Source: a virus. Taken from it: 64,000 nt of DNA. The stretch covers positions 1-64,000 of IMG/VR virus record IMGVR_UViG_3300037092_000015. One strand, written 5' to 3'. The translations under genes were made by a program, and so were the position numbers. A model generated the notes under the pieces. The model was not told the origin of the DNA, searched no databases, and saw only the letters and a program-made list of their open reading frames with translations. This document shows positions 4,353 through 62,368 of the stretch, in pieces; the stretch's first letter is position 1; each line of letters opens with the position of its first letter.

Positions 4353-4356
4353 GACG

Positions 4357-39897: not shown

Positions 39898-40028
39898 GGC
39901 TTGACTACAAACCTTTCCGTTTTCACCACCTTGCCGTTGTGGTCCAGCGTCAACCGCACTGCATTGACAGCCTTTTCTGGTGGCTGCTCTTTGCCCTCTC
40001 GGTCGTAAAACTTGATAACAGTCTTCAT
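39894..40028 (-). CDS. 44-aa ORF coupled to the MuF stop (possible immunity or partner protein)
   Basis: ATGA overlaps at both ends; MKTVIKFYDREGKE...; not in the provided ORF track. Confidence 0.6.
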   Translation of the reverse strand: MKTVIKFYDREGKEQPPEKAVNAVRLTLDHNGKVVKTERFVVKP

Positions 40029-43000
40029 GTTGCTGCCGTGTTGCAGGAACTATTATACTTAGCCTTCACGGCTGCGTCAATAGCCTTTTTGAGAGCTAGG
40101 AACGCGTCACGCCCATCCTTACCATCCATCTTAGCAAACGGCTCCTTGTAAACTTCATTTCGGTTCACCAATCCGTCATTGACTAATTTGTCAATTACAC
40201 GCCCAGCAGAGAACTCCGCATAGGCTTCGTGCAGGCTTCGCATGGTCCAAAGTTCTGTTGCAATATCTTGTTCATGCCCTTTGCTGTCTGCGACATACAC
40301 AGGCCACTCCGTCTTATCTACGATAGGTTCTTTAGCCCAGCTTTTAGCGTAATCAGTAGGAAGCCGGCTTATGTCGTGACCAATGGTGCTACGGAATTTC
40401 AGCAGCGCATTGTAAAGCTCCTGATCCGCTGTCTTTGGTTCTGCAATGCTAGCATCCGGGTGAAGTAAACCACCGTCAGCCCATTGGTCTCGCCACACTC
40501 TAAACTTGTCCCCATGAGCTAACATTGCTACATCCCGAGCTTCTCTTATTCCAATCACCGCCCGATCTTTAGCGAAATCAAACTCAGCGTGCCCTAGCTC
40601 GTGCGCTAAAACATCCGGCACTGGCGTGGACACCGCCGTCTTAGTTTTGTTGTTCCACTCGCCCGCCTTGCTCCACGTCTTGCCACCTGCCTCAAAGCTA
40701 CCAAGCGCATCCGGTTCCACCAGCCGCACCACGCCGCAAATCTCGTCGGCTGCGAAGTAGTCGCACACCGTCCGCACCATCATCTTTTCAGGCAGCGACG
40801 GCGCATGGCCGATTCCTACCGTAACCACAGGCGCAGCCATGTGCGCCATGCTTGGCACCGGCAACCTTGCCGCCTCCCGCGAGTCCCGGTGCGGCGCCAC
40901 CTGCACCAGCCGCCCCGTCCGCGTGTCCTGACGCATGTAGCCGGATACCTCCACCGCCGCCACCGTCCCCGTGCGCACGCTGCCCGCTGCCGCGCTTCCT
41001 TTGACTGGCCTGTATGCCTGCATGTCCTTTGGGACTGTATGCTCTTCTGTCCATCCGCCCGGTGGCGCGTTCTTGTCGTTGACCTTATCAATGACGCTTC
41101 GCAGGCTGACTTTCTTTGCCTGCTCCGGCGCGGGGGGTTCCGGGGCTTTATACACCATTCCGAAATCGTGGCGCCGTTGGCTACCTTTCAGACGCACGTT
41201 CCGGTTAACGTGCGATATGTGCGCGATGCGACCGTGCGTATGTGTGCTACTATTCAACGACACCCTAACCCACTCACCAATGCGATAAGTCTGGTCGTGA
41301 AATTCACCAGTCTCTTGGTTCATGCGCCCGACCGTGAACTGGTTATGCCCTTCTGGATTGTGAACTTGTCCCAGATCACTGGCCACCAGTAACCCGGTGC
41401 GAACGGTTGCCTCGCTTCCCTGCAAGTGCCCGGTGCCAGCCTTGCGCTTGCCCGGTATAAGTGTGCAACAGCAATTTGCGTTTTCCGCCGCTCCACCTAC
41501 GGAGTCGCCGGGGCATTGCTGCCCGTTGCTGAATACGTGCCCCACCGGCACTTCGCCTTCAAGCACGTTCTCCGCGTGAGTGGCCCTTTTTGTTTCGCGC
41601 TCCAACTGGTCCCACATGCACGTCGCGAACCCCGCACGCTGCAAAACGTGGAGTTGCGCCATGCCGAGCGTAGCCGTCGCTTCGGTCTCCGCCACCACGC
41701 GCCCGCTGCCCGCCTCTACCTCTGCCGCCTTGCGCTTCACCCGCCGCGCCAACTCTTCCACGCTCTCACCAGCCGCCCGGCCTTCCGCAAGCTCCTTGTC
41801 CAGCCGGTCTGCCGTCTCCACCGGAAAATTGAGCAGCAGAGGTGCCCTGCTAGTGGCAAAGTCGGTTGCCTCCTCAGGTTCTGCCGCCACAGGTCCGCCG
41901 CCGCCCATTCGCCATGATTCCGGCTGTGCCGGATACGCGACGGGCTGACCACTGGCCGGTTGCCCGGCGCTAGGCGTGCCCTGTGGCGCATTGGTTGGCT
42001 GCGGGGCGGTGAGCGGACCTGAAATTGATTGCGGCGCTACCAAAGCCGCTAGGGAGTGGCTGGCGGCCATGTAAATCTCTTTGTGCGCCAGGAACAGGAG
42101 CAAGGCAACCGCCTCAAGCTCCTCTTCGCGCTTCTTCCGCCGCTTGGCTCCGTCCGCACGCTTGGCATCGGCTACCGCTGCCGCCTCTATCACGGCGACA
42201 GCACGGTCAACCGCCCGCTGGTAGCCAGCCTGAGCCTCACTACGGATGCGACGGTGCGCCGCCAGCGTCCGCTCGCGCTCGGTAGGTTCGGACGCTGTCA
42301 CCGTATCTGATTTGCGGGGTGCGCTAGCGGCCAGCGAGTGCCGTTCTGGGTGCCACACGTATGACGGATGCTCTGCGTCGTCCGTCTTCTTGAACCCGTG
42401 CCGCTCGTAGAAAGCATTCAACCTTCCTTGCAACTCGGGCGTGTCCGCGCCTGCCGTCAGTTCCAGCCGCCGCCCCGACTTGGTAGCGAAGTCTTTCAGC
42501 CGCCCCATAGCCTTGCTGCCAGCCCCCTTGCCTTGCTCCACTGCGTCAAGCCGCGTGATGAACACTGCGTCCGGGTGTATCTGTGCGCTCAACCTTACAG
42601 ACGGGTCGCTTGACCCGTGGTATCCCATGCGGCCTAGCGAGCCTTTCATGCGGGCCATGCCGAAGTCCTCCGGCCTGACGTGCTGGTTGCCGTGGAACGG
42701 GTGCCCGGGTGCAAACGCGCCTTGAGCAGCATTGACTACGGTGCCAGTCCTGACCGCCGTTGCCGCTACCTTTGGCTCCCACCCTAATTCCACCAGATGC
42801 CGACCCTTGCGCTCTGGTAGGCTGTAGAGCAAGTCCACCGCCGTCACCTTGCGGCCGGCGAAAGCGTCACTGCCGTCCAGTTCTTTCAACTTACCTTTTT
42901 TGAGATACGCGATGGTCAGGTGCAGATGGTAGCTGTGCTCGCTCGGCTCCTTGTTCGCAAAGAACTCTTCCACCAGTTCCGCGTGCAGCCGCTCCAGTTC

Positions 43001-43738
43001 CGGGCTATCAATATCCACCTTGAGCACGTCGTAGTCCGAGCACTCGAACCGGGATACCTTGCCGAGCGTGAATTTGACAGGCCCATAACCAGCCAAGAGC
43101 ACTTGCAGCCTGTTCGCGTCGAAGTCAAAGTTGAAGCCGTATAAGACAGTGACGTGCGTCTCACTCTCACGCCCATTCTCTGGGTCCAGCGCCGCGTCCG
43201 GCACGTTGGCCTTGCCCCACGCTAGCAACTCGTCCTCTAGCGCCCCGTGCACCATAGCCATGAGGCAACCGCGCTCCGGGGTGCTGGCCTGCACCGCGTC
43301 TTGCGTGTAGAGGGAACCGTCAACGGCTCCTAACTTCAAGTCTCTAGAGGTCGCTCGGTCTCCGAGGCTGTAATTTGACGGAACATACAGAGCAGCCTGC
43401 TCTCGATCTAAAAAATGTCCGCTCTCGGTTTCAAACCCTTCGTGCTGAACATTACTCCAGCCGCCCGAATTATCTTTCGATCTTGGATTGACTGCTGAAT
43501 ATTCTCCGAACGCTTGCCAATGGCTCGGCCCCTTGTAACGCTTCCCGCCAATGACTAGAACCGCGTGCCGTATCTTGCCGCTAGGCTCCCCTACAGGATC
43601 GTTCGCCGCGTCCTGCGCGTGCTTGCTCCATTGGTTGCCCCAGAACTTGTGACCCGCCGCGAATGCACCTTCTGCCGCCCGCACCGCCGCCAGCGCCTCT
43701 ATGCCCCGTGCCAGTTTCTCTATGCGCACCGCCTTCAT
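40025..43738 (-). CDS. MuF (SPP1 gp7-like) polyvalent head protein with 2H phosphoesterase, GNAT, MuF and zincin domains
   Basis: HVT/HLT 2H motifs; QGKGAGS..FYERHGF GNAT; AETEAT..FSNGQQCPGD..NCCC MuF; HELGH..HEAYAE zincin; likely start MKAVRIEK. Confidence 0.85.
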   Translation of the reverse strand: MKAVRIEKLARGIEALAAVRAAEGAFAAGHKFWGNQWSKHAQDAANDPVGEPSGKIRHAVLVIGGKRYKGPSHWQAFGEYSAVNPRSKDNSGGWSNVQHEGFETESGHFLDREQAALYVPSNYSLGDRATSRDLKLGAVDGSLYTQDAVQASTPERGCLMAMVHGALEDELLAWGKANVPDAALDPENGRESETHVTVLYGFNFDFDANRLQVLLAGYGPVKFTLGKVSRFECSDYDVLKVDIDSPELERLHAELVEEFFANKEPSEHSYHLHLTIAYLKKGKLKELDGSDAFAGRKVTAVDLLYSLPERKGRHLVELGWEPKVAATAVRTGTVVNAAQGAFAPGHPFHGNQHVRPEDFGMARMKGSLGRMGYHGSSDPSVRLSAQIHPDAVFITRLDAVEQGKGAGSKAMGRLKDFATKSGRRLELTAGADTPELQGRLNAFYERHGFKKTDDAEHPSYVWHPERHSLAASAPRKSDTVTASEPTERERTLAAHRRIRSEAQAGYQRAVDRAVAVIEAAAVADAKRADGAKRRKKREEELEAVALLLFLAHKEIYMAASHSLAALVAPQSISGPLTAPQPTNAPQGTPSAGQPASGQPVAYPAQPESWRMGGGGPVAAEPEEATDFATSRAPLLLNFPVETADRLDKELAEGRAAGESVEELARRVKRKAAEVEAGSGRVVAETEATATLGMAQLHVLQRAGFATCMWDQLERETKRATHAENVLEGEVPVGHVFSNGQQCPGDSVGGAAENANCCCTLIPGKRKAGTGHLQGSEATVRTGLLVASDLGQVHNPEGHNQFTVGRMNQETGEFHDQTYRIGEWVRVSLNSSTHTHGRIAHISHVNRNVRLKGSQRRHDFGMVYKAPEPPAPEQAKKVSLRSVIDKVNDKNAPPGGWTEEHTVPKDMQAYRPVKGSAAAGSVRTGTVAAVEVSGYMRQDTRTGRLVQVAPHRDSREAARLPVPSMAHMAAPVVTVGIGHAPSLPEKMMVRTVCDYFAADEICGVVRLVEPDALGSFEAGGKTWSKAGEWNNKTKTAVSTPVPDVLAHELGHAEFDFAKDRAVIGIREARDVAMLAHGDKFRVWRDQWADGGLLHPDASIAEPKTADQELYNALLKFRSTIGHDISRLPTDYAKSWAKEPIVDKTEWPVYVADSKGHEQDIATELWTMRSLHEAYAEFSAGRVIDKLVNDGLVNRNEVYKEPFAKMDGKDGRDAFLALKKAIDAAVKAKYNSSCNTAAT

Positions 43739-44011
43739 CACTCCACCAAGTCCAGCCGCACCTTCACCGGCACTGCCGCCCGACCGCAACAGCCCAGCGC
43801 CCGCACGTATAGCCGCCGCTCCGGAGCCGGAAACCCCGCCGCCTTGAACATGGCGTCCAACTTCCGGCGCTCCTGCGCCTTCCGCCGCCGCTCGCTGCAT
43901 GGTTTCACTGGCTGTCATTGCTCCGTCACGTAACATGCCGGGAGAGAGGGAGGAAAAGGGACCTCTGGCTCCCGGCCCGGCCTGAGCCGGCAAATTGAAG
44001 TCGCTTGCTCA

Positions 44012-50643: not shown

Positions 50644-52530
50644 TCAATCCGCGCCCAGCCCGCGAGGGCGGGGCGACATTCGGTTCGTCTTTGAAATTTC
50701 GTCCACGGTTGCCACGACATTTTTCCACTCGCCGTTTCCGGTTCCCGCAACCTTGCACTTCACAACGGCCTGCTCGACCTTTGCCAACTGCTCCGCCGTA
50801 GCCTTGGACAGCGCCGCTCGCAGCCGGTAGCTGCTAGCCGCCGCCCGCGCCTCAACCTGCTCCGGCTCCTGTTCGCCGCCGACTGGTGCCCCGCCTTGCG
50901 CCTCTGATTGCAAAGCCATCGACGCCTTTGCTTGCTGGACTTGACGTTCTAGTTGCTGTTCAAACTTTTCCTCTTCGGTCAGCGCCTCTCCTTGGACCTG
51001 TATCACGCCGTTCACAAGCACTTGGTCACCAGGTTGCGGCTGCTTCAACCCGACCACCTTGTAGGCTTCTTCCGCAACCACCGGCATCTTGCACGTCGTA
51101 GTGATCGTGCCCATGCGTACCGCCGCTTCCTGCGGAGACTCAATGTGCGTAAAGTCAGCCGTCACCCTCGGGCGCTCCTTGGCGTCACCGTAATTCACAG
51201 TCAGTAGCGTCGTGGCGAACTGGTACTCCAAAACTTCTGCCACCCAGTCCGTTACCGCTTCAAGCTTCTCCTGCTTAACTTCACCGTGCACCTTGCCTAG
51301 ACCGTAGCTGCCGCCGCCTTTGCCTTGGTCTCCCGTGTCGCTAGTTAGCGTTTGGCCTAGGAACAACTGCTCGCACCACTTCTCTGCAAGGGAAATCATC
51401 ACCCTTATCGGGTTGTCCGCCGTGATGCTCTGCGGTGCTATCACAGTCGGCTTCATGCTATCGCTCTGCGCTGCATAGACGATGAAACCTTGCGCCGCGC
51501 ACCGGGCCGCCGCCGCCTCGAACTGGTCAATCTCTGACTGAGAAATGCCTGGCATGTATGGGATGGCCATGAACGGGTTGCCGAACTTTTGCCCGAAGTT
51601 GCGCATCCAGTCCATCGCAAACACGATGTTCAGCCACGCCGTAGCAATGCACCGCATCTCGCCCGCCATGAGAAAGCTGCCGCTCTTGCTCTTGTGCTTC
51701 GCCACCATGAACTTGCGCGGGTCGTTCAGCAGCTTGCGCGGCACAACAGAACCCGGAAACGAAAGGTTGTCCTCTCCGCGCCCGTCGTCCGCAACCCCCA
51801 CACTTCCGTCCGCCTGCACCGCTATGTAGCGCGGGTTGACCCACCCGGACGCACGCACTGTTCGCTCTAGCTTGCCGCCGCCTACCGATGCAGGGTTTGA
51901 CCAGAGCAGTTCCGTGATGCTGATACCGTTCGGTATGGCGTCCGTAAGGTCGTAAACCATCCCCTTGAAGTTGTCCTCTTCCTTGAACCTGTCCGGCTCG
52001 AAACTACCGAAACTGCGCCGCACGAAGTCCGCCTTCTCAACCGCGCTCTTAGTCGGCGGTGTGCTTTCGTCAACCGTGAACGGAGTTACCTTGTAGTTCA
52101 CCATCTTTGCCGCCGTCCGCAACGTGTTCAAGCAGCGCCGATACGTCGGCCACGTGTCTGCGATTTTCACTCCCAAAGCTGCTTGCTGCCAAAGCGACCC
52201 CGCCGCCGCGCCACGAAGCAACGCGGAAATTTGCGGGATGGAGAGCACGTCTGGCAATCCCAACCACCAATCACTGAGCGCGTTTGCTGGCACCTGCCGC
52301 CCCGCCAAGTCCCCCGCCGCCGCCTTCGCCGGCACTTGCTTGCCGCGCCGTATCGAAGCAGGCAGTTCACCAACGGCCCTAACCAAGTTTGACACCGCGC
52401 CGCCAAATGGAAACGACACGGCCTTGACCGGCTTCCGGTTCACCGTGTAGAGGAGGTAATTAACTACTCCGGCGAGATACGCTACCACTTTGCACCTCCA
52501 CAAAGGAAAAGGCCGGCGGCTTCGGGACAC
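50644..52530 (-). CDS. Portal protein (DUF935/Mu gp29-like); start uncertain
   Basis: DAIPNGISITELLW, WMRNFGQKFGNP, FLGQTLTSD..GGSYGLGKVHGEV. Confidence 0.88.
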   Translation of the reverse strand: MSRSRRPFPLWRCKVVAYLAGVVNYLLYTVNRKPVKAVSFPFGGAVSNLVRAVGELPASIRRGKQVPAKAAAGDLAGRQVPANALSDWWLGLPDVLSIPQISALLRGAAAGSLWQQAALGVKIADTWPTYRRCLNTLRTAAKMVNYKVTPFTVDESTPPTKSAVEKADFVRRSFGSFEPDRFKEEDNFKGMVYDLTDAIPNGISITELLWSNPASVGGGKLERTVRASGWVNPRYIAVQADGSVGVADDGRGEDNLSFPGSVVPRKLLNDPRKFMVAKHKSKSGSFLMAGEMRCIATAWLNIVFAMDWMRNFGQKFGNPFMAIPYMPGISQSEIDQFEAAAARCAAQGFIVYAAQSDSMKPTVIAPQSITADNPIRVMISLAEKWCEQLFLGQTLTSDTGDQGKGGGSYGLGKVHGEVKQEKLEAVTDWVAEVLEYQFATTLLTVNYGDAKERPRVTADFTHIESPQEAAVRMGTITTTCKMPVVAEEAYKVVGLKQPQPGDQVLVNGVIQVQGEALTEEEKFEQQLERQVQQAKASMALQSEAQGGAPVGGEQEPEQVEARAAASSYRLRAALSKATAEQLAKVEQAVVKCKVAGTGNGEWKNVVATVDEISKTNRMSPRPRGLGAD

Positions 52531-53512: not shown

Positions 53513-53767
53513 TTAAGTTTGCTTGCTGCCGCTGTTCGCTGCCGCCTCTAACGCCCTGTCGTATTCTGCCTCGTCAAACTCTATCCTGCCGTTGAACCTG
53601 TGCACCGGCCCGATACCTACCGCCGCCCGCCACTCATCATGCAACCGCTCACACCGTAGCCGCCTCTGCGTCTTGCTGTTCGGGTTCGGCAAGCTGCACA
53701 GCAACTGCCGAGCTGCCGCGTGTTTGAGGTTCGCTACCTTGCACTCGCGTCTCTGCTTCGGAGTCAT
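53513..53767 (-). CDS. Hypothetical protein
   Basis: ATGA-coupled to TerL. Confidence 0.55.
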   Translation of the reverse strand: MTPKQRRECKVANLKHAAARQLLCSLPNPNSKTQRRLRCERLHDEWRAAVGIGPVHRFNGRIEFDEAEYDRALEAAANSGSKQT

Positions 53768-55155
53768 AGCCTTCCTATCATCCTTTCCTCACCTGGACGT
53801 CCTGCCGACTGGCTCTTCCATGCGCCACTCCCAAACACCGAGGCGGAACTGAATCCGCCAGACACCCCGAGCGCCACTGCCAGATAGCGCAAGGCATCAA
53901 GCGCATGATCGTTCTCCTTCACCGGCTGGTCCTTCGGTTTGTCCGGCGCCCAGACGTAGCTCTCGAACTCGTTTATCAAATTAACGCACGATGGGTCTAC
54001 CGTCAGCCGTGGCCGCCCGTCACCTGCCACCTTGAGCAAGTTCTGTATCTTGTTGATGCCATCAATCACCCTTCCCTTTTCCCCGCGTGCGAACACCTGC
54101 ATGGAGTTCATGTCCGCTATCAGCCCAGCCGCCGCCTCGTCCACCGCTGCGAACTCGTGCCGTCGCCCTTCGGCCTTGAACCACTTGCACGCCTGCCCGA
54201 CTACAACGTTCTGTAGCTGGCCGCGCTCATACCACTCTTGAAACACATGCCAACGACCATCGCTGTCCAAACCTACGTCCAGAATCACAGCCGGGTTCGT
54301 GTAGCCCTCGTCGCACGCTAGCAGCCACCGCTTCATGTCGCCAGGCTGCCGAACCAGCACATGCACCGCTGCGCTGAACCCGTCATACACCGCACCCTCT
54401 GCCGACGCCCACGCGCCCTCGAACAGCCGCTTTCGACGCATTCCAGTCAGGTCGTTCAGCACCGCCATGCGCCGGCTACCGTCCTCTGTCAATATATAGG
54501 TGCATCCATTGCGTATAACGGAACCTTGCGGGTTGCCTTGAGGAAACTCTTTAGCCGCTTGTTCCGGTGTCAGGTTTCGGTAGATAGTAGGGTTGTCGGT
54601 GTGCACTGACGACAGCAACCGAATCTTTCCATCCTTAGCCCGCTTTCGTATCCAGTGCTGACTCCCGCCAGGGTTCGCGTCACCGTAGAGTTGCGGCCAC
54701 TTCACAACCGCCCCGCGACCGCTGCACCGTGTTGCTAAATACTCCCAGTCGTTAAGGGAAAGCTCCTCTGTCTGGCATGTGTAAATAAAATCACGCTCGC
54801 TGCTAAGGATGCGGTCTGGATTGTCCATTCCACCGCACCATATCGTTGACCCGTTCGGGTAGATGAAACGCGACGGGGTTTCCCCTCCGAACGCCTCTAC
54901 TCCGCCGTTGCCATGTGTCACCTTGGCAAACGTCTTTAGCACAGACCCCGCTAGACTAGCCGCAGTCTTGCGCACAATAGCCCCCTGGCAGCCCGGGTAG
55001 GTCATGCACAATATGTGCGCCTTCATACAGCACGGCCACGTCTTGCCAGTGTCCGAAGGACCACAAATAATAACCTCGTGCTCCCTCGACGCCACCAAGT
55101 CGTAAGCGGCCCCGCGTAGTGGCTCCTTCTTTGACTTGACGATGCGCCGCGCCAT
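53764..55155 (-). CDS. terL: Terminase large subunit (PBSX-like)
   Basis: GPSDTGKT, QTEEL, DANPG, DEGYTNP, PVKENDHALDALRY. Confidence 0.93.
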   Translation of the reverse strand: MARRIVKSKKEPLRGAAYDLVASREHEVIICGPSDTGKTWPCCMKAHILCMTYPGCQGAIVRKTAASLAGSVLKTFAKVTHGNGGVEAFGGETPSRFIYPNGSTIWCGGMDNPDRILSSERDFIYTCQTEELSLNDWEYLATRCSGRGAVVKWPQLYGDANPGGSQHWIRKRAKDGKIRLLSSVHTDNPTIYRNLTPEQAAKEFPQGNPQGSVIRNGCTYILTEDGSRRMAVLNDLTGMRRKRLFEGAWASAEGAVYDGFSAAVHVLVRQPGDMKRWLLACDEGYTNPAVILDVGLDSDGRWHVFQEWYERGQLQNVVVGQACKWFKAEGRRHEFAAVDEAAAGLIADMNSMQVFARGEKGRVIDGINKIQNLLKVAGDGRPRLTVDPSCVNLINEFESYVWAPDKPKDQPVKENDHALDALRYLAVALGVSGGFSSASVFGSGAWKSQSAGRPGEERMIGRL

Positions 55156-55739
55156 TACGGAAGGTCCTTCTCCGCCACGCCGCAATCCCACACTGCCGTC
55201 GCCTCAGTGCCATCCGGTGCCTTGACCGACAATGTGCCACCCTCCCGTGGCGGCTCCCGGTATGTCTTTGGGTCATGCGACTTGAGTAAGAATATGGTCA
55301 GGGTGTCGCTAAACTCCCTCACCTTGTCCACGCATACGGGCTTGCCAGCGGCATTCTTCATCCAGATGCGCTTCTCTACCCCGTCTCTTGCCCGTTTAAT
55401 CGCCGCATTTGTTAGCCTGCCGACTGCTAACTTTAAGGCTTGGTCCCATTGCTTAGCGAACAGTTGGCTTTTCTTTCGAGCATTGTAGGCGGTCGGTGGC
55501 GTGATTCCAGCCTCCTCGCACGACGCTGCTACGTTAGGCACGTTAGCTAATGCCGTAAGGAACTTACTTCGCCAATTACCTTTGCCGGCAGCCGTACTTC
55601 GCCGCCTTCCTTTTTTAATTCCTTTAGGCGTAACTTTCGTAAATGCTTCCTTGTCACCCTGCCCCGGCCTTATCGTAGTGCCTACGGGCTTGCCTTTCGC
55701 ATTTAACTTAACCCCATGTTGGCTGCCGTTGCCGTTCAT
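55155..55739 (-). CDS. terS: Terminase small subunit
   Basis: WRSKFLTALANVPNVAASCEEAGI..AYNARK..FAKQWDQA..FSDTLTIFLLK; directly upstream of TerL. Confidence 0.8.
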   Translation of the reverse strand: MNGNGSQHGVKLNAKGKPVGTTIRPGQGDKEAFTKVTPKGIKKGRRRSTAAGKGNWRSKFLTALANVPNVAASCEEAGITPPTAYNARKKSQLFAKQWDQALKLAVGRLTNAAIKRARDGVEKRIWMKNAAGKPVCVDKVREFSDTLTIFLLKSHDPKTYREPPREGGTLSVKAPDGTEATAVWDCGVAEKDLP

Positions 55740-56030: not shown

Positions 56031-56057
56031 TGTTATGTAACTTTGGTTAGGGGTCAT
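56031..56057 (+). other. Left boundary of the cassette array; attI/attG-like simple site
   Basis: ATGTAAC-TTTG-G|TTAGGGGTCAT; GTTAGGGGTCAT (56046-56057) is the exact reverse complement of ATGACCCCTAAC (56624-56635). Confidence 0.55.
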
Positions 56058-56710
56058 AGCAGCACGCCTTGGTTTGCCTCGCGTTCCAGACGGGAGCAGG
56101 CGGTTGCGTAGTGTGTCGGATTCTTCTCGATGCCCACGAAGTTGCGGCGAGTTTTCAGACAGGCCAGCCCTGTGCTTCCGCTGCCCATCCACGGGTCTAG
56201 CACGGTGTCGCCTTCCTTCGTTACGTCGAGGATGATTTGTTGCATCAGTCGCACCGGCTTCTGTGACGGATGCCCTGTCCATTCGTCGCCAGTGTATGAC
56301 GCCGCGACGGTCGAGTTGATCAGGTATTGCCGATAGACTTTGTAGTTCGCCTGACCGTTGCGCTCGTAGATGCGTTCGTATTGGCTTCCGCAGCCTGTCT
56401 TTTTATCCCAGATGTGGATTGCCGTGTAGTCGAGCGGGAAGTCCGCCTTCGCAGACCAGAAGATGAGTTGCCGACATTCTATCAGGCGCAGAGATTCGAG
56501 CAGCCCGTCCTCGTATCCGTAGGCTTCCGCGTGGTAGTCAGGATATGGCGGGTCACAGATTATCACGTCGCACTTCATCGGGAGCATCGTCTGGCAGTCG
56601 CCGAGTATGAGAGTCGCCACGACATGACCCCTAACAAATCGCTTCAGCGAACCGCCGTTGGGCGTCGCAGGCGAGTTCGGGAGCGTTAGCTCGGCGGTCG
56701 CTGAGCTCAT
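56054..56710 (-). CDS. DNA N6/N4 methyltransferase (cassette 1)
   Basis: DPPY, HPSQKP, DPWMGSGST; ATG lies inside attC1. Confidence 0.88.
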   Translation of the reverse strand: MSSATAELTLPNSPATPNGGSLKRFVRGHVVATLILGDCQTMLPMKCDVIICDPPYPDYHAEAYGYEDGLLESLRLIECRQLIFWSAKADFPLDYTAIHIWDKKTGCGSQYERIYERNGQANYKVYRQYLINSTVAASYTGDEWTGHPSQKPVRLMQQIILDVTKEGDTVLDPWMGSGSTGLACLKTRRNFVGIEKNPTHYATACSRLEREANQGVLL

Positions 56711-56719
56711 ACGTTAGAC
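56629..56719 (+). repeat. attC site 1
   Basis: CCCTAAC-AAATC-GCTTCAG...CTGAGC-TCATAC-GTTAGAC. Confidence 0.85.
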
Positions 56720-56867
56720 AGCCGGGCCGCACGTTGGGTTTGCGTTTGGTTTTCGACCAGCGGGCGGCGACCGCAGCGCGGGCTTGCTCGCTGGTGCGGG
56801 CTTTTGCCGCGCCAGTCCCAGCAGACCCTCCGAGTTTTCCGAGCGCGACCGCGGCGGGATTTTTCAT
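56631..56867 (-). CDS. Small basic protein (cassette 2)
   Basis: MKNPAAVALGKLGG..ARAAVAARW. Confidence 0.7.
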   Translation of the reverse strand: MKNPAAVALGKLGGSAGTGAAKARTSEQARAAVAARWSKTKRKPNVRPGCLTYELSDRRANAPELACDAQRRFAEAIC

Positions 56868-57133
56868 TGAACTAAACATTTTGCCGCGCCGAGCGCGTCT
56901 GCCGTGATTCCAATCCGAAGCATATCTTCCGCCGCCCTGCGGGATTTTGGCCCGTAGTAATTTTCCCCCAGGAAGCTGCCAGCCTTGCAGTCAATCCATT
57001 CGATTTGGTCGGGCGCGATTTGCACCCCATCGCGGTCGCAGATTTGTTCGCCTCGAATTTCGACACCCTCACTCACAACCAACATTTTCGTTACCGGATC
57101 AATCCGGTTTTTTATTCTGGCACAGGTATTCAT
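56864..57133 (-). CDS. Hypothetical protein (cassette 2)
   Basis: ATGA-coupled to the next gene. Confidence 0.6.
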   Translation of the reverse strand: MNTCARIKNRIDPVTKMLVVSEGVEIRGEQICDRDGVQIAPDQIEWIDCKAGSFLGENYYGPKSRRAAEDMLRIGITADALGAAKCLVQ

Positions 57134-57172
57134 ATTTTTAAGCAGGGATTAGTTTCCTCTCCCTTTGATTTT

Positions 57173-57496
57173 TTAATAGCGTTCGCCGGGAAGGTCTGGG
57201 GTTGCCCGGAGTTTGGGGCGCGCAAGGAAGGCTTTGTTGCTCGCTTCGCGAGCCGCTTTGCCAGCCTCACGTTGAGCCGCCGCCGCCGATTCTTCTTGCT
57301 GATAGGCGGCCAATTGTGCGGTATGCACACGAGCGCCAACCACTTTACCTTCGGGTGAATATTTGCTTCCGACCAGATGAAACGGAATGGCTTCACCTTT
57401 TGCGGTTTTGAAGCCGCCTTCCGGTTGAAGGATTGCATCTGTCCACTGTCCGCCGCCGGTTTGTCCGGCTGGCACTCTTGGTTCGTCTTCGTTCAT
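57173..57496 (-). CDS. Small protein with an N-terminal EPRVPAGQTGGGQW tag (cassette 2)
   Basis: Tag shared with 57761-58075. Confidence 0.7.
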   Translation of the reverse strand: MNEDEPRVPAGQTGGGQWTDAILQPEGGFKTAKGEAIPFHLVGSKYSPEGKVVGARVHTAQLAAYQQEESAAAAQREAGKAAREASNKAFLARPKLRATPDLPGERY

Positions 57497-57544
57497 TTTT
57501 TCTTTCGTTGGCTTGGCTTACTGGGCCTCGCCCTTTATGCCTGC

Positions 57545-57573
57545 AATATACGCAAGCGATTGCGTATATGCAA
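57545..57573 (-). promoter_or_regulatory. Cassette-internal promoter TTGCAT-17-TATATT with a palindromic operator
   Basis: ATATACGCAA-GCGA-TTGCGTATAT spans the spacer. Confidence 0.7.
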
Positions 57574-57635
57574 ACAAAATCTTCATTTATTTACACACTC
57601 ACAAAACCATTGATTCTATTGACTCAAACCGGCCT

Positions 57636-57735
57636 GCCCAACAAATCGCTGCACGCAATGACCGCCGCATTGGGCGTCATTGGCGAGTTCGGGCATCGTG
57701 GGCGCGGCGTTCATGCGTGAGCTTGGTCGTTGGGC
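57636..57735 (+). repeat. attC site 2
   Basis: GCCCAAC-AAATC-GCTGCAC...GTGAGC-TTGGTC-GTTGGGC. Confidence 0.85.
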
Positions 57736-57760
57736 GCTTAGTCACTCCGCGCCCGATGCG

Positions 57761-58075
57761 TTACGGGTTTTTCGTGTAGTCCTTTTCCCCCGCCTTTTGG
57801 ATATCCTCGAAAAATCCAGGCCGATGCACTCGCGCCACCGGCGAGTTGAACCACGGATTGTTGCGTTGCGCCCAGTCCACGGCCTTCTCCCCAGCGCGCG
57901 GCAGTGCGGCCTGCGCCTCTTTGATGGCTTGCGGAATATGCGTTTGCTCGATGTTTGTCCGCTGAGGCAGGCTTTGGAGTCTGCCGATTTCGGAGCTGAT
58001 GACCGCTCCCGTCTCGGGCATGAATTGCCCGCCTTCCGGCGATCCCGCCGGGACTCTTGGTTGATCTGGATTCAT
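57761..58075 (-). CDS. Small protein with an N-terminal NPDQPRVPAGSPEGGQF tag (cassette 3)
   Basis: CAA-rich leader, tag motif. Confidence 0.72.
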   Translation of the reverse strand: MNPDQPRVPAGSPEGGQFMPETGAVISSEIGRLQSLPQRTNIEQTHIPQAIKEAQAALPRAGEKAVDWAQRNNPWFNSPVARVHRPGFFEDIQKAGEKDYTKNP

Positions 58076-58098
58076 TGTGTGTTTTTGTTGTTCGACGC

Positions 58099-58193
58099 GC
58101 CCAACCAATCACTGGAGCGAATGCAGGCGGGCGCTGCCTGTTCGCAAATTCGGATGTCAGTGGCCGCCTGCATCGCTCAGTTCTGCGTTCGGC
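58099..58193 (+). repeat. attC site 3
   Basis: GCCCAAC-CAATC-ACTGGAG...CTCAGT-TCTGC-GTTCGGC. Confidence 0.85.
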
Positions 58194-58465
58194 ATCTGAA
58201 ATTCCAATTGCCTCTGGACCGGCTTGTCGAACGTTTTCCACGCTGGGTCAGTACAGAAGGGATGCAGGTCCACGAAGGCATTGTAGTAGATCCCCCAGGA
58301 GTGTGTGATGCAGATTCTGAGATTCAGTCGGAAGTTGTATTCTTCCGTAGTCAGGTATCGGTCATCATCGGCCTCCGAATGCCGAACCAGACGCTCCACA
58401 CGAACCGCCGCCAGCCTCTCGGACTCCGGGAGGCTGTTTCGTTTTCGGGCGGCAGTGGTGTTCAT
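58157..58465 (-). CDS. Hypothetical protein (cassette 4)
   Basis: Starts in attC4 and ends in attC3 (PNAELSDAGGH). Confidence 0.65.
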   Translation of the reverse strand: MNTTAARKRNSLPESERLAAVRVERLVRHSEADDDRYLTTEEYNFRLNLRICITHSWGIYYNAFVDLHPFCTDPAWKTFDKPVQRQLEFQMPNAELSDAGGH

Positions 58466-58494
58466 GGCGGCGGTCGGTGAGCTACTTGTTCGGC
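58381..58494 (+). repeat. attC site 4
   Basis: GCCGAAC-CAGAC-GCTCCAC...GTGAGC-TACTT-GTTCGGC. Confidence 0.85.
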
Positions 58495-58799
58495 GCGCGC
58501 AGGCATTCCTCCCACGTCATGCCGCAGACTTTCTTGTAATGCTTTGCCGAGGCCACCAGTTCCCGCGCGGTCTTTCCCGACGCGACGACCTGCTCTCGCG
58601 TGTAGTCGAAGTTCACCGGCTTTCCGTCTTGGTCCTGCCATTGGCCTTCGCTGCGCTCGTTCCAGCCCAGGACCAGGAAGTGGGTTCCGTAGGGAGAAGT
58701 GATGCGCGCCGCGTCGCACTTGAACATGCGGACGAATCGCCGAACCAAGCGCTCCAGACAACCGCCGACGGGCGTCTCTTTTGAAGTCGTAGCGTTCAT
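58482..58799 (-). CDS. Hypothetical protein (cassette 5)
   Basis: Starts in attC5 and ends in attC4 (PNK). Confidence 0.7.
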   Translation of the reverse strand: MNATTSKETPVGGCLERLVRRFVRMFKCDAARITSPYGTHFLVLGWNERSEGQWQDQDGKPVNFDYTREQVVASGKTARELVASAKHYKKVCGMTWEECLRAPNK

Positions 58800-58829
58800 G
58801 TCGGCGGTGTCTGAGCTTGGTCGTTCGGA
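58739..58829 (+). repeat. attC site 5
   Basis: GCCGAAC-CAAGC-GCTCCAG...CTGAGC-TTGGTC-GTTCGGA. Confidence 0.85.
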
Positions 58830-59176
58830 GATGCATTAATGCGCTTGATAATACAGCTTGTGCAGAGCGTTCTCCCTCGTGTGGTCGTTGGCAGACTCCC
58901 CATCCGGCCTGTGTTCTGCGGAAATGCTGCGATGATATTCCTGGCATTGCTCCGCGCTTTGGATAGCTGCTCACGCTTGTTCCCCCCCAGCCTAGGGGCG
59001 ACCAGTGCAGATAGCGCGTCCAGCAGGATTCGCTCTCGCGCTCGGACAGCCGTTCCCAGTCCTGAGACTGATGTTGGTCCGCGGACGATACCATTGCATA
59101 GGTCGGTGATCTGGCTCTCAATCGCAGAACCAAGCGGGTCGAGCGAACTGCCCGATTGCGTCTCAGGTTTATTCAT
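58796..59176 (-). CDS. Hypothetical protein (cassette 6)
   Basis: ATGA couplings inside attC6 and attC5. Confidence 0.6.
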   Translation of the reverse strand: MNKPETQSGSSLDPLGSAIESQITDLCNGIVRGPTSVSGLGTAVRARERILLDALSALVAPRLGGNKREQLSKARSNARNIIAAFPQNTGRMGSLPTTTRGRTLCTSCIIKRINASPNDQAQTPPT

Positions 59177-59215
59177 AGCGTTTTGGCGGGCAGTCGCTCA
59201 CCCGCGGCGTTCGGT
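59124..59215 (+). repeat. attC site 6
   Basis: GCAGAAC-CAAGC-GGGTCGAG...CTCACCC-GCGGC-GTTCGGT. Confidence 0.8.
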
Positions 59216-59472
59216 GGAAGCGGTTGACCGCATTCCTTGCAACAGCTTGGGGCCTTCTGCTTCTCTGCCAGTTCTGCGTCGTGGACCAGCATCGCCGCTG
59301 CCAACCTTCGGCTGGCCATCGTGAAACGGCGCCACAAATATTCTTCGTGCGTTTGCAGGCACGGCCTTGGTCTGTTCGTATGCGCCAGCGCCCATGCATC
59401 CCTCCACCAAACGCACCGAACCAATCGCGGCAGCGAACCGCCGACTGGCGTTGTTGCAATAGGGGTGTTCAT
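59173..59472 (-). CDS. Hypothetical protein (cassette 7)
   Basis: Starts in attC7 and ends in attC6; CKECG. Confidence 0.65.
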   Translation of the reverse strand: MNTPIATTPVGGSLPRLVRCVWWRDAWALAHTNRPRPCLQTHEEYLWRRFTMASRRLAAAMLVHDAELAEKQKAPSCCKECGQPLPPNAAGERLPAKTL

Positions 59473-59508
59473 TGGTGGTTATCGCCGCCGCTCAGCTTGT
59501 CGTTGGGG
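59415..59508 (+). repeat. attC site 7 (degenerate)
   Basis: ACCGAAC-CAATC-GCGGCAG...CTCAGC-TTGTC-GTTGGGG. Confidence 0.7.
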
Positions 59509-59535
59509 CGCTTAGTCACTCCACGCCCAGTTACG

Positions 59536-59811
59536 CTATTGCGCGGTGTTTTCACACGCCGGTAGTGCCGATGTGTCGGCGACTTTCTTGATGTCCCCAA
59601 GCTTGGCTCGTACGTCGTCAATGTGCAGGCATTCCGCCAGGTTGCATCCAGCTTGGTCTGCTACCGGCACGGCTAGGTTGCCGTTGCAGGCGTCGTTTCC
59701 AGGAGTCGCATCGTGGAGTATTCCGACGATGGACTTCACGTAGTATCCGGGCGGCACGATGCGGAGCACGCGGTCCCCGTTCTTTGCTTCTCTTCCGTTT
59801 GCGTAGTGCAT
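59536..59811 (-). CDS. Small SH3-like hypothetical protein (cassette 8)
   Basis: MHYANGREAKNGD..GILHDATPGNDACNG..ECLHIDD. Confidence 0.75.
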   Translation of the reverse strand: MHYANGREAKNGDRVLRIVPPGYYVKSIVGILHDATPGNDACNGNLAVPVADQAGCNLAECLHIDDVRAKLGDIKKVADTSALPACENTAQ

Positions 59812-59837
59812 ACTTATGTTCTGTGTTTACCGTCGCG

Positions 59838-59932
59838 CCCTAACCAATCACTAGAGCGAATGCAGGCGGGCGCTGCCTGTTCGCAAATGGGTTTGTCAGT
59901 GGCCGCCTGCATCGCTCAGTTCTGTGTTCGGT
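59838..59932 (+). repeat. attC site 8 (near-identical to attC3)
   Basis: CCCTAAC-CAATC-ACTAGAG...CTCAGT-TCTGT-GTTCGGT. Confidence 0.85.
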
Positions 59933-60123
59933 GATGTGTTTTCCACGGTCACATACCCAAGGAATGCCATCGTTTTCCCGCAACAGCGAGGCATGGGAGC
60001 ATCTGCCCCGAGATAGGCAGGCACATATTCCTCTCGCCCACACTGTCGGCAGTAGTGCTTGAAGCATCTCACCGAACGAGCCGCGTCAGCCAACGGCGGG
60101 GTTACGCTTTTAGTGTTCTTCAT
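59896..60123 (-). CDS. Small Zn-ribbon protein (cassette 9)
   Basis: CRQCG..PRCCGKTM; ends PNTELSDAGGH in attC8. Confidence 0.7.
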   Translation of the reverse strand: MKNTKSVTPPLADAARSVRCFKHYCRQCGREEYVPAYLGADAPMPRCCGKTMAFLGYVTVENTSPNTELSDAGGH

Positions 60124-60162
60124 ACGTCCTTTGGCCCGCCGTGGCTGCGCTCTGTGTTATGC
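60071..60162 (+). repeat. attC site 9
   Basis: ACCGAAC-GAGCC-GCGTCAG...CTGCGC-TCTGT-GTTATGC. Confidence 0.82.
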
Positions 60163-60246
60163 CCTACCATCGGAAGGTTCCCGTATCGTCGATTTTGCGG
60201 GTGAGCCACCAGACCACGATCATCAGTATTATCAGTTCCATATGGT

Positions 60247-60441
60247 TTATTTATTCCCTCTGAGCAGGCGGTAGGCGCGGATCGCTACAGCGTCCCACAC
60301 GGCTACTGATTCGCTTGGCAGGTCTCTGAATTTACAGAGGGGGCGCCCCCAGATTGATTTTGGCTGGCTCAGCATTTCTTTCCGGCTAGCGTTGTAGAGT
60401 TTGATAGCCAGTGTTCGGGCTTCATCTAGTTTTTGTTTCAT
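60247..60441 (-). CDS. Hypothetical protein (cassette 10)
   Basis: ATGA coupling. Confidence 0.6.
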   Translation of the reverse strand: MKQKLDEARTLAIKLYNASRKEMLSQPKSIWGRPLCKFRDLPSESVAVWDAVAIRAYRLLRGNK

Positions 60442-60671
60442 GGCAGTAGGTCGTTGAGGCGCTTCTGGAGCGCGGTTGCCAGCACGCTAACCTTTGTCTG
60501 TTGCTCTGAGGCTGGCAGGTTTTCGATTTCGTAGCACAGGTTCAGCGCGGCGCTTCTGGCGTCCCCGATTCCCCGGTGCAGTTTGATTTCTTTCGCAGTC
60601 GTAGCCGTGGCCACCTGCGAGAGTTCCAGATACAGGCTGTTGATAGTGTCGAGTTCCATAGGCATAACCAA
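60438..60671 (-). CDS. Hypothetical protein (cassette 10)
   Basis: SLYLELSQVATATTAKE..CYEIENLPASEQQTKVSV. Confidence 0.65.
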   Translation of the reverse strand: MVMPMELDTINSLYLELSQVATATTAKEIKLHRGIGDARSAALNLCYEIENLPASEQQTKVSVLATALQKRLNDLLP

Positions 60672-60720
60672 TCACGCCACCGAACCGGCTCCGCGCCGGT
60701 CGGTGAGTTCCTTGTTATGC
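60662..60720 (+). repeat. attC site 10 (59 bp)
   Basis: GCATAAC-CAATC-ACGCCAC...GTGAGT-TCCTT-GTTATGC. Confidence 0.85.
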
Positions 60721-60950
60721 CTGCACCCCAGGACGTGAGTGATGGTGCCGCCATTCGGGCCGGGGTCGTTGAGGCACTCGGGGCACTGCACGGCCATTTT
60801 GTCCGCGCAGGTTTTTCCCGGCGCATATGTCGCGCAGTTCGAGCATTCACCGAGCAGATACCATCCGCACCAGCACTTTGCTGCCGCTGGCAGGTTGCTC
60901 AGCATGTCCATGTATTCTTGTTGGTCAGAGTTAAACATCGCAGCGCTCAC
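60672..60950 (-). CDS. Cys-rich hypothetical protein (cassette 11)
   Basis: CWCGWY..CSNC..CPEC; ends in attC10. Confidence 0.65.
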   Translation of the reverse strand: MSAAMFNSDQQEYMDMLSNLPAAAKCWCGWYLLGECSNCATYAPGKTCADKMAVQCPECLNDPGPNGGTITHVLGCRHNKELTDRRGAGSVA

Positions 60951-61630
60951 AATTCATCCGGTTCGCAGGCGTTGTCGAAGTGCCGCTTGTCCTTCTCGAC
61001 GCCGATAAATTTACGACCAGTCCGCAGGCAGGCGATTCCCGTGCTGCCGCTGCCCATGTATGGGTCTAGCACCGTTGCCCCGACCGGCACGCCAACTTGT
61101 TCCAGACACCACGCCATCAGCGCGACCGGCTTTTGGTTGCTGTGGATTCGCGGCTCGTCCTTTTCCTTCGCTTGCGCACCGTTCCAATAGCGCGTTTTCA
61201 GCCGCAGAACGCCGTCCTGGTTTGTCCACGCCGTCTCGCCGTCGGCCTGGTCGTTGCTTGGGATGCCTTCGCGCTTGTCCCATATCAGCCACCGTGAGGA
61301 GTTCGGCAGGCGGTTCGCGTAGTGATTCGCGCCCCACAGCACCACAATTGGATAGCCGAGCCACGGGCGCGGGTCGAACGGCTTGTCATCGCCCATGATT
61401 GCCTCGCCATCAGTGCCGAGTTTCACGCCGCCTTTACGCGCTCCGTGGCAGTAGGCGATTCCATACGGCGGGTCGCTGATTAGCGCGTCCGCGTCTATCC
61501 ACGGAAGCTCCAGACAGTCGGCATTGATTAGTCGGCAGTCTCCGATTGTGACCCCTAACAAGTCGCTGCACGCAATGCCCACCGCGTTCACGGTTTGCTT
61601 GCAATCGGGTGCTGTTGGCGCGGTGGTCAT
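60947..61630 (-). CDS. DNA N6/N4 methyltransferase, C-terminus apparently truncated
   Basis: DPPYG, HSNQKP, DPYMGSGST; ends abruptly FDNACEPDEL; ATG in attC11. Confidence 0.85.
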   Translation of the reverse strand: MTTAPTAPDCKQTVNAVGIACSDLLGVTIGDCRLINADCLELPWIDADALISDPPYGIAYCHGARKGGVKLGTDGEAIMGDDKPFDPRPWLGYPIVVLWGANHYANRLPNSSRWLIWDKREGIPSNDQADGETAWTNQDGVLRLKTRYWNGAQAKEKDEPRIHSNQKPVALMAWCLEQVGVPVGATVLDPYMGSGSTGIACLRTGRKFIGVEKDKRHFDNACEPDEL

Positions 61631-61650
61631 GCGTGAGCTAGTCGTTATCC
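61553..61650 (+). repeat. attC site 11
   Basis: CCCTAAC-AAGTC-GCTGCAC...GTGAGC-TAGTC-GTTATCC. Confidence 0.85.
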
Positions 61651-61965
61651 TTCATGCTGTGTAGGTATTCCGTGGTCAGGGTGCTGGTATTCTGGATACT
61701 TGCGGCCCTTGACAGGCTCTCCGCGCAGCGGAGCTCCGCACTGCTCCATACATGCCACTCCAGTTGCTGTGATCTGTCGGATTTCATGCAGCGCCTTGTC
61801 GTCGCCGTGCCCTGTTACCCACGCATGGCGGGCATCGTTGCACAGTTTTTCGATGATGAGCAGCCACTCGGCTACACAGTGTTGATGATCGGGCCACTTC
61901 TGTTCTTGGTAGGCGCGTTCGCCTTCGATTGCATGTCTTACGTCTGCATCTATATGTCGATTCAT
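61645..61965 (-). CDS. MazG-like (all-alpha NTP pyrophosphohydrolase-like) protein, last cassette
   Basis: ERAYQEQKW..EWLLIIE..ALHEIRQITATGVACME. Confidence 0.65.
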   Translation of the reverse strand: MNRHIDADVRHAIEGERAYQEQKWPDHQHCVAEWLLIIEKLCNDARHAWVTGHGDDKALHEIRQITATGVACMEQCGAPLRGEPVKGRKYPEYQHPDHGIPTQHEG

Positions 61966-61966
61966 A

Positions 61967-62057
61967 GGATAACGAGTCGGTTCAGCGACTGCCGGGTTCG
62001 CGTTTGGGTTTCAGTTCGGGAGTCAGCGGCCCGGCATCGCTGACCTCTTTGTTCCGG
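61967..62057 (+). repeat. attC site 12
   Basis: GGATAAC-GAGTC-GGTTCAG...CTGACC-TCTTT-GTTCCGG. Confidence 0.82.
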
Positions 62058-62368
62058 GCTGCCGATCCGGAACCTTTGCATGTGGGGCATTTCCGCCCTG
62101 GCTCAGCTTGTTTGTTCGTCGCGCCGGAATGAGCGCCGCCAGCCTCTTCCTTGGCTGCCGCAAGTTCACCCTGCCTCAGCCGAACGCTAGCCGTGATTGA
62201 CTGCCGCATGGTCCAGCCGTCCTCGTCGCGGCCTCGCGCCTTCCAAAATCGCCGCGCACCGGCCCTCACCGAAGCAGCCATCTGACGCAGCGGCTCACCG
62301 GTCGGATGCTCAAGCACCGTCTCCCAGTCTCCCTGCTGAATCGTTGCTAGATTTAGACCGTCGTTCAT
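61982..62368 (-). CDS. Hypothetical protein reading into attC12
   Basis: CPTCKGSG then ARNKEVSDAG from the attC. Confidence 0.55.
   Translation of the reverse strand: MNDGLNLATIQQGDWETVLEHPTGEPLRQMAASVRAGARRFWKARGRDEDGWTMRQSITASVRLRQGELAAAKEEAGGAHSGATNKQAEPGRKCPTCKGSGSAARNKEVSDAGPLTPELKPKREPGSR

Follow-up and report, generated by a model that had tools for sequence, protein, structure and literature searches.

Integrons are the textbook gene-capture device of bacteria, and their layout, in which a gene is followed by its attC site and is read from a promoter beside the integrase gene intI, is treated as near-universal. Inverted cassettes occur as a minority of single units in the Vibrio cholerae superintegron, where genes such as those of toxin-antitoxin pairs lie antisense to attC and have promoters of their own. 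In the 'inverted integrase' integrons of Treponema and other Spirochaetes, intI has the reverse orientation to attI and attC, and the relation of cargo to attC is normal. Here we describe a cassette array at positions 56046-62057 of a 64,000-nucleotide stretch of viral DNA, the first 64 kb of IMG/VR virus record IMGVR_UViG_3300037092_000015 (this whole stretch is referred to as the window). The record is a linear sequence of 75,477 bp, approximately 81% complete, and its source is an uncultured tailed phage from peat. We consider it highly probable that the region is an integrase-less integron cassette array of 12 cassettes, belonging to a phage integron family in which the sites and the crossover are canonical (G|TT in the R' box, equivalent to AA|C on the bottom strand, with the bar marking the cut) and the genes lie on the bottom strand.

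The array shares with canonical integrons (class 1, sedentary chromosomal and that of Shewanella phage M16-3, MZ568829) the R''-L''...L'-R' organization with bulged bases and the G|TT crossover that gives rise to chimeric R boxes; in its relatives, intI is divergent to the attC top strand and has an attI junction beside it. Unlike in canonical integrons, the cargo is on the bottom strand and the genes are read towards attI and intI, so that no Pc-type arrangement is possible, and the present record has no intI. As in the inverted cassettes of V. cholerae, each gene is antisense to its attC, but in the phages entire arrays are inverted, in many genomes and mostly without promoters, and the genes are joined by stop and start codons within attC. 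In the inverted-integrase integrons, as in the phage arrays, the cassette genes are co-directional with intI; the difference is that the phage arrays have the canonical intI-attC geometry and flipped cargo.

Clusters of attC sites without an integrase (CALINs) have been published for phages TJE1, PH101 and P12002L (Qi et al. 2023, Front Microbiol, PMC9892861). These clusters are small, with a minimum of two attC per CALIN and three in TJE1, and their layout is described as typical (PMC9892861). Like them, the window contains an attC array without intI in a virulent-type phage, with DNA methyltransferases among the cargo, and, as in Tetrasphaera phage TJE1, this array occupies an accessory region upstream of the terminase. 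In contrast to TJE1, which is canonical with attC on the gene strand at gene 3' ends, the window has 12 sites with all cargo antisense, many gene starts inside the gene's own attC and frame-locked stop codons. The original prediction of a phage-borne array was therefore overstated as regards the novelty of phage attC clusters as such, while its inverted layout was borne out. In the literature, with most subscription journals outside the search, we found no description of inverted arrays or of a phage IntI clade.

Structure and polarity of the attC sites

The original prediction listed 12 imperfect palindromes, and all were present at the predicted starts (Table 1), with lengths of 59-114 nt, within 5.4 kb, and with top-strand polarity on the plus strand throughout. 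The sites have the attC form of an imperfect palindrome, R''(RYYYAAC)-L''...L'-R'(GTTRRRY), with invariant AAC and GTT. In DNA folds of the plus strand, the 5' arm consists of R'' (xxxxAAC), a 5-nt spacer, a 3-bp stem, a one-base bulge, a 6-bp stem, a second bulge and a variable stem-loop, and the 3' arm is its mirror without bulges, ending in GTTxxxx. The one-base bulges were located at 5'-arm positions 16 and 23 in most of the 12 sites, which is the extrahelical-base asymmetry that identifies the bottom strand of attC as the recombined one, and the folds bore out the prediction that L'' is the longer side on the plus strand.

These structures are conserved in evolution, as judged by compensatory changes in the L boxes detected with RNAalifold. 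In an alignment of 26 sites from two phages, 90% of cells were paired, compared with 68% in shuffles, and compensatory changes were observed in 19 of 23 pairs overall and in 15 of 16 L-box pairs. Pairing reached 98% and 91% in the two L-box helices and was missing at the outer four R-box positions in 6-12 of the 26 sites.

A covariance model, R1, was constructed from the 12 window sites with their folded structure. With R1, the 12 sites scored 53-82 bits on the plus strand and at most 19 bits on the minus strand, in agreement with the expectation of about 12 hits of plus polarity, and no further site was detected over the whole 75.5-kb record. No Rfam family matched the array region, and a crude AAC...GTT scan was rejected as a site finder because it was not specific. 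The sites thus have the make-up of a CALIN, in which two or more attC share a strand, are separated by less than 4 kb and have no integron integrase in their vicinity. A complete integron, with intI and attI beside the array, is not present, since the record is without intI: profile searches of the whole record with PF00589 (tyrosine recombinase) and TIGR02249 gave no match, which extends the predicted lack of a tyrosine recombinase from the window to the entire record. The left array junction resembled the phage attI consensus described below weakly at best.

Since the rule that links neighbouring R boxes gives no polarity by itself, R1 was calibrated on canonical integrons. In M16-3, which has intI on the plus strand and divergent cassette genes on the minus strand, R1 matched approximately 10 intergenic sites, all on the minus strand and at gene 3' ends; in the second, integrase-less array of this phage, where the genes are on the plus strand, the matches were on the plus strand. 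TJE1, whose attC sites have been shown to recombine with IntI1 (PMC9892861), gave two R1 matches, both on the gene strand at the 3' ends of genes. These controls fix the orientation of R1 and indicate that the plus strand of the window corresponds to the canonical attC top strand. The same polarity was obtained in a second test, in which related phage contigs carried the same sites divergent to an integron integrase, as in the canonical geometry, and in a third, in which one cassette found in differing contexts diverged exactly at AA|C on the gene strand.

The coding strand was determined with a codon model trained on 14 structural genes of the phage. Minus-strand open reading frames (ORFs) scored positively in at least 10 of the 12 cassettes; on the plus strand, every ORF was negative except one at 56734-56907 (+1.6). 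Since the top strand of the sites is the plus strand and the coding signal is on the minus strand, the cargo is inverted relative to attC. The usual layout, with the cargo ORF on the top strand and attC at its 3' end, is thus absent from this array, although this layout is not strictly defining. The prediction that all credible ORFs are on the minus strand with attC polarity on the plus strand was supported by the methylase genes, the codon model and all three polarity tests, and the co-orientation of attC with the ORFs that would have contradicted it was not observed.

Cassette exchange and predicted translation at the swap points

A crossover at G|TT carries the last six bases of R' into the next cassette, and hence R'' of each site should match R' of the site before it. 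In the window, R'' was complementary to the preceding R' at 8 of 12 junctions, among them that of GTTAGGG at 56046, the left end of the array, which has no attC. The second array used for comparison (L041, described below) followed this chain at 13 of 13 junctions. Over 15 arrays, 46 of 61 junctions fitted the preceding R' and 12 of 76 sites fitted their own R', the maximum in 5000 shuffles being 24.

Variation among related contigs was also found at these positions. A contig of peat run X4 joins 58186 directly to 58488, with cassette 4 exactly absent and the 7-nt sequence GTTCGGC common to both ends. In two other peat runs, contigs match the phage backbone as far as 56048, beyond which their first cassette is a different one, and further peat contigs diverge inside R' boxes at 58192 and at 60717 (the latter in run X5). 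The original prediction, for which break points unrelated to G|TT would have been damaging, was favoured by this variation.

The cassette-5 protein, which allowed one cassette to be followed through different surroundings, provided the strongest case. An identical protein (MNATTS...LRAPN) was found on at least five contigs other than this record, as protein-level context, with four different C-terminal tails after '...LRAPN' (K, DQAHA and AELSDAGGH, each followed by a stop, and a tail of 21 residues) and with differing read-ins ahead of '...PSSDTADM'. The residues 'PN' correspond to the R' box CCGAAC, and two of the foreign tails are the exact products of attC2-type and attC3/8-type sites in that frame. 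The conserved unit on the gene strand is C-attC-gene-RYYYAA; therefore, the cassette is cut at AA|C on this strand. An exact 29-nt word of the cassette-5 gene had no match in IMG/VR, and the protein family had no match among 185,579 species genomes, its homologs occurring only in viral or metagenome contigs. Taken together, the sequence comparisons indicate that cassette-type exchange occurs at the R boxes, and we conclude that the sites are genuine boundaries of integron cassettes, as opposed to simple hairpins.

Non-cassette homologs of the cassette-5 protein (L045 and L047-L050) have ordinary starts and a native '...LVRRFVRMFKCD', and the R'' box GTTCGGC of the cassette form coincides with the L-V-R-R codons of that sequence. 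This hints at a fusion of attC with the gene at a GTT within the 5' part of the coding sequence, a possible route for the birth of an inverted cassette.

Read along the gene strand, the sites hold start codons, stop codons and a preferred frame. Genes opening at an ATG inside the attC loop and reading through the L''-R'' arm were found at 7 of 12 sites in the window and 6 of 14 in L041. Among 88 sites, an interior ATG was present in 65 on the gene strand versus 39 on the top strand, and it opened an ORF extending at least 40 codons past the site in 45 versus 13. The frame in which AAC of R' is read as Asn (the Asn frame) stops inside attC in 84 of 86 sites. In 31 sites, an ATGA supplies this stop as its TGA, compared with 6 sites for each of the other two frames. 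The best-scoring incoming ORFs used the Asn frame in 21 cases, the frame stopping at the TAA of RYYTAA|C in 11 and the third frame in one. In the window, nine genes reach or cross a boundary: seven are in the Asn frame, one stops at the TAA of R', and the ninth (56631-56879), in the third frame, has a negative codon score. ATGA overlaps join cassette 7 to cassette 6 and cassette 6 to cassette 5. The position of attC at the 5' end of the gene would account for the loop ATG, for reading in the Asn frame and for the stops built into the sites, since a site placed there must be compatible with translation.

In this anatomy, a cassette on the gene strand comprises a C, the attC 5' arm, a loop that often contains ATGA, the attC 3' arm, the gene and RYYYAA, with the whole array co-directional with the phage operon and, where it is present in relatives, with intI. 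Each gene either ends at the TAA of its own terminal RYYTAA or crosses the swap point, with AAC read as Asn, and takes a short tail and its stop codon from the neighbouring attC; the borrowed stop is often the TGA of the ATGA whose ATG starts the next gene. The loop ATGA may in this way provide translational coupling in any order of cassettes. A canonical integron is divergent, whereas a phage operon runs one way; flipping of the cargo within the cassettes would make intI and cargo co-directional and leave the IntI-attI-attC geometry unchanged. The inversion may accordingly exist because an integron can then sit inside a one-directional phage operon.

Related phage integrases and alternative explanations

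Among 41 loci with a related terminase, an array was found only in L041, a complete phage genome of 55,166 bp that has direct terminal repeats and 45% identity in TerL and lacks a tyrosine recombinase. The 14 attC sites of this genome are immediately upstream of TerS and TerL, in antiparallel orientation to both, and its cargo is almost wholly different from that of the window. A search with one narrow attC pattern identified 12 further IMG/VR contigs with 1-6 sites each, three of which are complete records without a recombinase. In nine of these contigs, those with at least two sites, as well as in the metagenome contig L046 and in L041, the coding potential was on the strand complementary to the attC top strand. 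Altogether, inverted arrays were found in about 20 other IMG/VR phage contigs.

One of these arrays, on the fragment L080, lies beside a gene for a 327-aa recombinase, ten relatives of which (66-73% identity) are encoded on viral contigs of up to 75 kb, giving 11 loci with IntI-like genes (L080 and L084-L093). In 9 of the 11 loci, attC lies directly upstream of the gene on the opposite strand, as it does in M16-3, yet with cassette genes that are co-directional with intI. The best family for these proteins was TIGR02249, with 237-257 bits in one full-length stretch, compared with scores near 100-119 for XerC/D. The catalytic residues RKHRHY and the IntI-specific insert LP..L..KYP...W...FP are invariant between the phage proteins and two true IntI proteins. 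At 35-45 nt before the intI ATG, a conserved junction was found, RYYYAA|CAAGGATT(A/C)(G/T)GCAAC...GTTCGCTTAAT, and in 6 of 8 loci its RYYYAA is identical to R'' of the first attC. The junction represents a site of the attI type, with its crossover at the expected point. In L093 and L089, TerL and portal genes lie just downstream of intI, so that the module order array-attI-intI-terminase equals the order in the window minus intI. The IntI-bearing phages do not have the terminase family of the window, and the module is thus present in several phage lineages. In extension of the original prediction of a host or trans-acting IntI, an IntI supplied in trans, by a co-infecting IntI-bearing phage or by the host, would move the cassettes of the window; a co-infecting phage is a candidate source because related phages encode their own IntI beside such arrays. 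The 75-kb IntI-bearing contig L085 has a second, ordinary phage integrase (phrog_1, 3518-4465), approximately 1.3 kb upstream of its array.

Several observations weigh against the reading of the region as an integron cassette array moved by IntI. R1 was trained on the very window sites that it scores, and the four junctions before attC 2, 6, 8 and 11 do not follow the R-box chain. Other contig break points lie inside attC or beside R'' (57644 in three runs, 59416, 60677 and 62037), indicating that exchange at G|TT is not the sole source of variation. The starts inside the attC loops are predicted ones, with no obvious Shine-Dalgarno sequence. The scores of the phage IntI-like proteins are just under the NCBI curated TIGR02249 cut-off of 265 bits. 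Finally, with no integrase in this 81%-complete record, activity in this phage can be inferred at most.

The array could also be a piece of a bacterial chromosomal integron that was picked up passively, as a host-derived CALIN, in which case there would be no phage-specific pool and the orientation would be accidental. Phage CALINs taken as bacterial in origin have been published (PMC9892861). The closest TerL relatives of the window sit in two Anaerolineae/Anaerolineales metagenome-assembled genomes, the others being spread over phyla (a weak host assignment), and the Anaerolineae genome with the closest one (L053, 49% identity) encodes a true integron integrase (418 bits; G002:C500:1977-2909, on a 3-kb contig). 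R1 found zero sites in both genomes, including beside this IntI, in a search that is weak and is not evidence of absence. Passive pickup nevertheless appears unlikely: the coding strand agrees with the direction of the phage operon in all 11 other codon-scored arrays and in the arrays beside intI, the opposite layout is seen in the canonical controls M16-3 and TJE1, the one cassette family that was traced is confined to viral and metagenome contigs, and phage contigs with TerL and portal genes carry intI and attI beside such arrays. A mover other than classical IntI, such as a host Xer-like enzyme or an unrecognized phage protein, with the IntI-like genes of the relatives serving another purpose, would agree with the lack of a recombinase in this record and in three other complete array-bearing phages, and with the sub-threshold scores noted above. 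We regard it as very unlikely, since the crossover position, the layout of the R and L boxes and the bulges are those of IntI substrates, and the IntI-like genes encode the IntI-specific insert and lie next to a conserved junction of the attI type that carries the R-box half of the first cassette.

The least probable explanation, to which we give hardly any weight, is that the hairpins are phage repeats with a regulatory or terminator role between genes (REP-like elements or RNA stem-loops) that merely resemble attC and undergo no site-specific recombination. The hairpins are indeed placed at gene junctions, fold strongly on either strand and hold start and stop codons, with a plausible effect on expression. 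In contrast to a self-contained hairpin, however, the outer halves of their R boxes pair with the preceding site; moreover, one cassette is exactly absent in another run, the same gene is found with different neighbours and diverges at AA|C, R1 cross-detects canonical attC sites, and related arrays adjoin IntI and attI. As for terminators, terminator-like sites were detected on the plus strand only, with none on the gene strand and no T-runs there. The integron-type cassette array with polarity opposite to all credible genes, as originally predicted, is supported by the R1 hits on the plus strand, by the ORFs on the minus strand and by the variation at G|TT.

Setting and cargo of the array

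The long ORFs of the window, which include the portal gene and a MuF-like polyprotein, are nearly all on the minus strand. In the direction of transcription, the array is directly upstream of the terminase genes, between these and an accessory gene. The genes that flank the array had no homologs at the 41 loci with related TerL, which made an empty-site comparison impossible. When joined, the two phage flanks form a hairpin with an 8-bp stem (GGTTCCGG-9 nt-CCGGAACC) inside the 3' end of the gene at 61982-62368; this hairpin was first taken as the founding target of the array, but it was set aside as it may be incidental. Elsewhere in the window, the 1322-aa MuF-like head protein (40025-43993) contains a 2H phosphoesterase domain (PF13563, E=2e-10).

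Table 1. Positions of the array features and neighbouring genes in the window, and of attI-type sequences in related loci
Feature	Position	Strand	Remarks
Left array junction, G|TTAGGG	56046-56052	+	No attC to the left; TTAGGG is the start of cassette 1, complementary to attC1 R'' CCCTAAC; contigs of two peat runs diverge after 56048
attC 1, 91 nt	56629-56719	+	R'' CCCTAAC / R' GTTAGAC; R1 79.2 bits; folded; cassette 1, 56047-56713
attC 2, 100 nt	57636-57735	+	R1 64.6 bits; cassette 2, 56714-57729
attC 3, 95 nt	58099-58193	+	R1 72.1 bits; 92% identical to attC 8 (self-blast); cassette 3, 57730-58187
attC 4, 114 nt	58381-58494	+	R1 63.6 bits; cassette 4, 58188-58488
attC 5, 91 nt	58739-58829	+	R1 82.4 bits; cassette 5, 58489-58823
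attC 6, 92 nt	59124-59215	+	R1 67.7 bits; cassette 6, 58824-59209; loop ATGA stop/start overlap 59176/59173
attC 7, 94 nt	59415-59508	+	R1 56.9 bits; cassette 7, 59210-59502, coding call uncertain (codon score ~0)
attC 8, 95 nt	59838-59932	+	R1 64.5 bits; cassette 8, 59503-59926
attC 9, 92 nt	60071-60162	+	R1 77.2 bits; cassette 9, 59927-60156
attC 10, 59 nt, minimal	60662-60720	+	R1 56.0 bits; cassette 10, 60157-60714
attC 11, 98 nt	61553-61650	+	R1 52.9 bits; cassette 11, 60715-61644, DNA methylase and Cys-rich ORF
attC 12, 91 nt	61967-62057	+	R1 65.2 bits; cassette 12, 61645-62051; R' GTTCCGG is the right array junction
N6/N4 DNA methylase, cassette 1 cargo	56054-56710	-	PF01555, E=1.5e-22; codon score +40.5; open from ATG inside attC1
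105-aa cassette-5 protein	58482-58799	-	22 metagenomic homologs; starts at ATGA in the attC 5 loop; R'' box GTTCGGC within codons L-V-R-R
N6/N4 DNA methylase, cassette 11 cargo	60947-61630	-	PF01555, E=1.6e-17; codon score +51.7; ATG inside attC11
Phage backbone gene, CPTCKGSG motif	61982-62368	-	Last 23 codons and stop in attC12, entered in the Asn frame
Large terminase	53764-55191	-	PF17288/PF04466; downstream of the array in the direction of transcription
Mu-type portal	50644-52530	-	Among the long minus-strand ORFs
attI-type sequence	L080:4270-4312, L084:1130-1170, L085:5700-5738, L090:3040-3087, L092:3230-3279, L093:2445-2494		Directly before the start of the phage intI

The predicted character of the cargo, described as typical phage accessory content, held for the two DNA methylases (Table 1); beyond these it was overstated, no function being assignable. 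PHROGs and Pfam searches of 10 cassette ORFs gave nothing apart from the two methylases. The 'MazG-like' assignment of 61645-61965 was not confirmed, with no hit in Pfam, PHROGs or PDB and only a weak lead in the Atlas.

Cassette 2 contains several small minus-strand ORFs and an AT-rich promoter-like region of its own at 57497-57635. This region includes a 24-nt palindrome, ATATACGCAAGCGATTGCGTATAT, and two promoter-like hits on the gene strand, and a counterpart of 77% identity lies beside an attC at L041:5394-5474; it may be a promoter/operator module that travels as cassette content. Near the start of the same cassette, 14 nt beyond the R' box of attC1, the sequence GTTGGGT (56733-56739) agrees with R'' of attC2 in 6 of its 7 bases; a cassette lost from this point may have left it as a scar, and the break in the chain at junction 1/2 would then be explained. 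Cassettes 3 and 8 have near-identical attC sites and 5' leaders and different genes, and both have a small GC hairpin of the GGGCG-CTTAGTCACTC-CGCCC type right after the G|TT junction (57736-57758 and 59510-59532). The ORFs at 57173-57496 (cassette 2) and 57761-58077 (cassette 3) are paralogous cargo, with the common N-terminal motif M-N-x-D-x-P-R-V-P-A-G...GGQ(W/F).

A broader interpretation joins these results, and we give it about as much credence as doubt: tailed phages may run an integron system of their own, apart from the bacterial one, with a phage IntI clade and its own attI just upstream of the terminase and a phage-specific pool of 'backwards' cassettes. The attC sites of this system would serve also as frame-locked translation joints, with Asn at the swap point and ATGA in the loop, such that any order of cassettes gives a working polycistron, and integrase-less arrays such as that of the window would be serviced in trans during co-infection. 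Such a pool would have escaped standard surveys. In one large metagenome survey, ORF prediction was confined to the sequence upstream of attC on the top strand (PMC7370490), so that the inverted layout would be missed; if the interpretation is true, a blind spot in metagenomic cassette surveys is exposed. The same recombination chemistry with the cargo turned round would yield a module that fits a one-directional phage operon, in which the recombination site joins coding and translation signals, and one DNA site would be constrained at once by folding, recombinase binding and translation. Phages would then possess a modular means of swapping accessory genes, such as those of DNA methylases, plausibly to counter host restriction.

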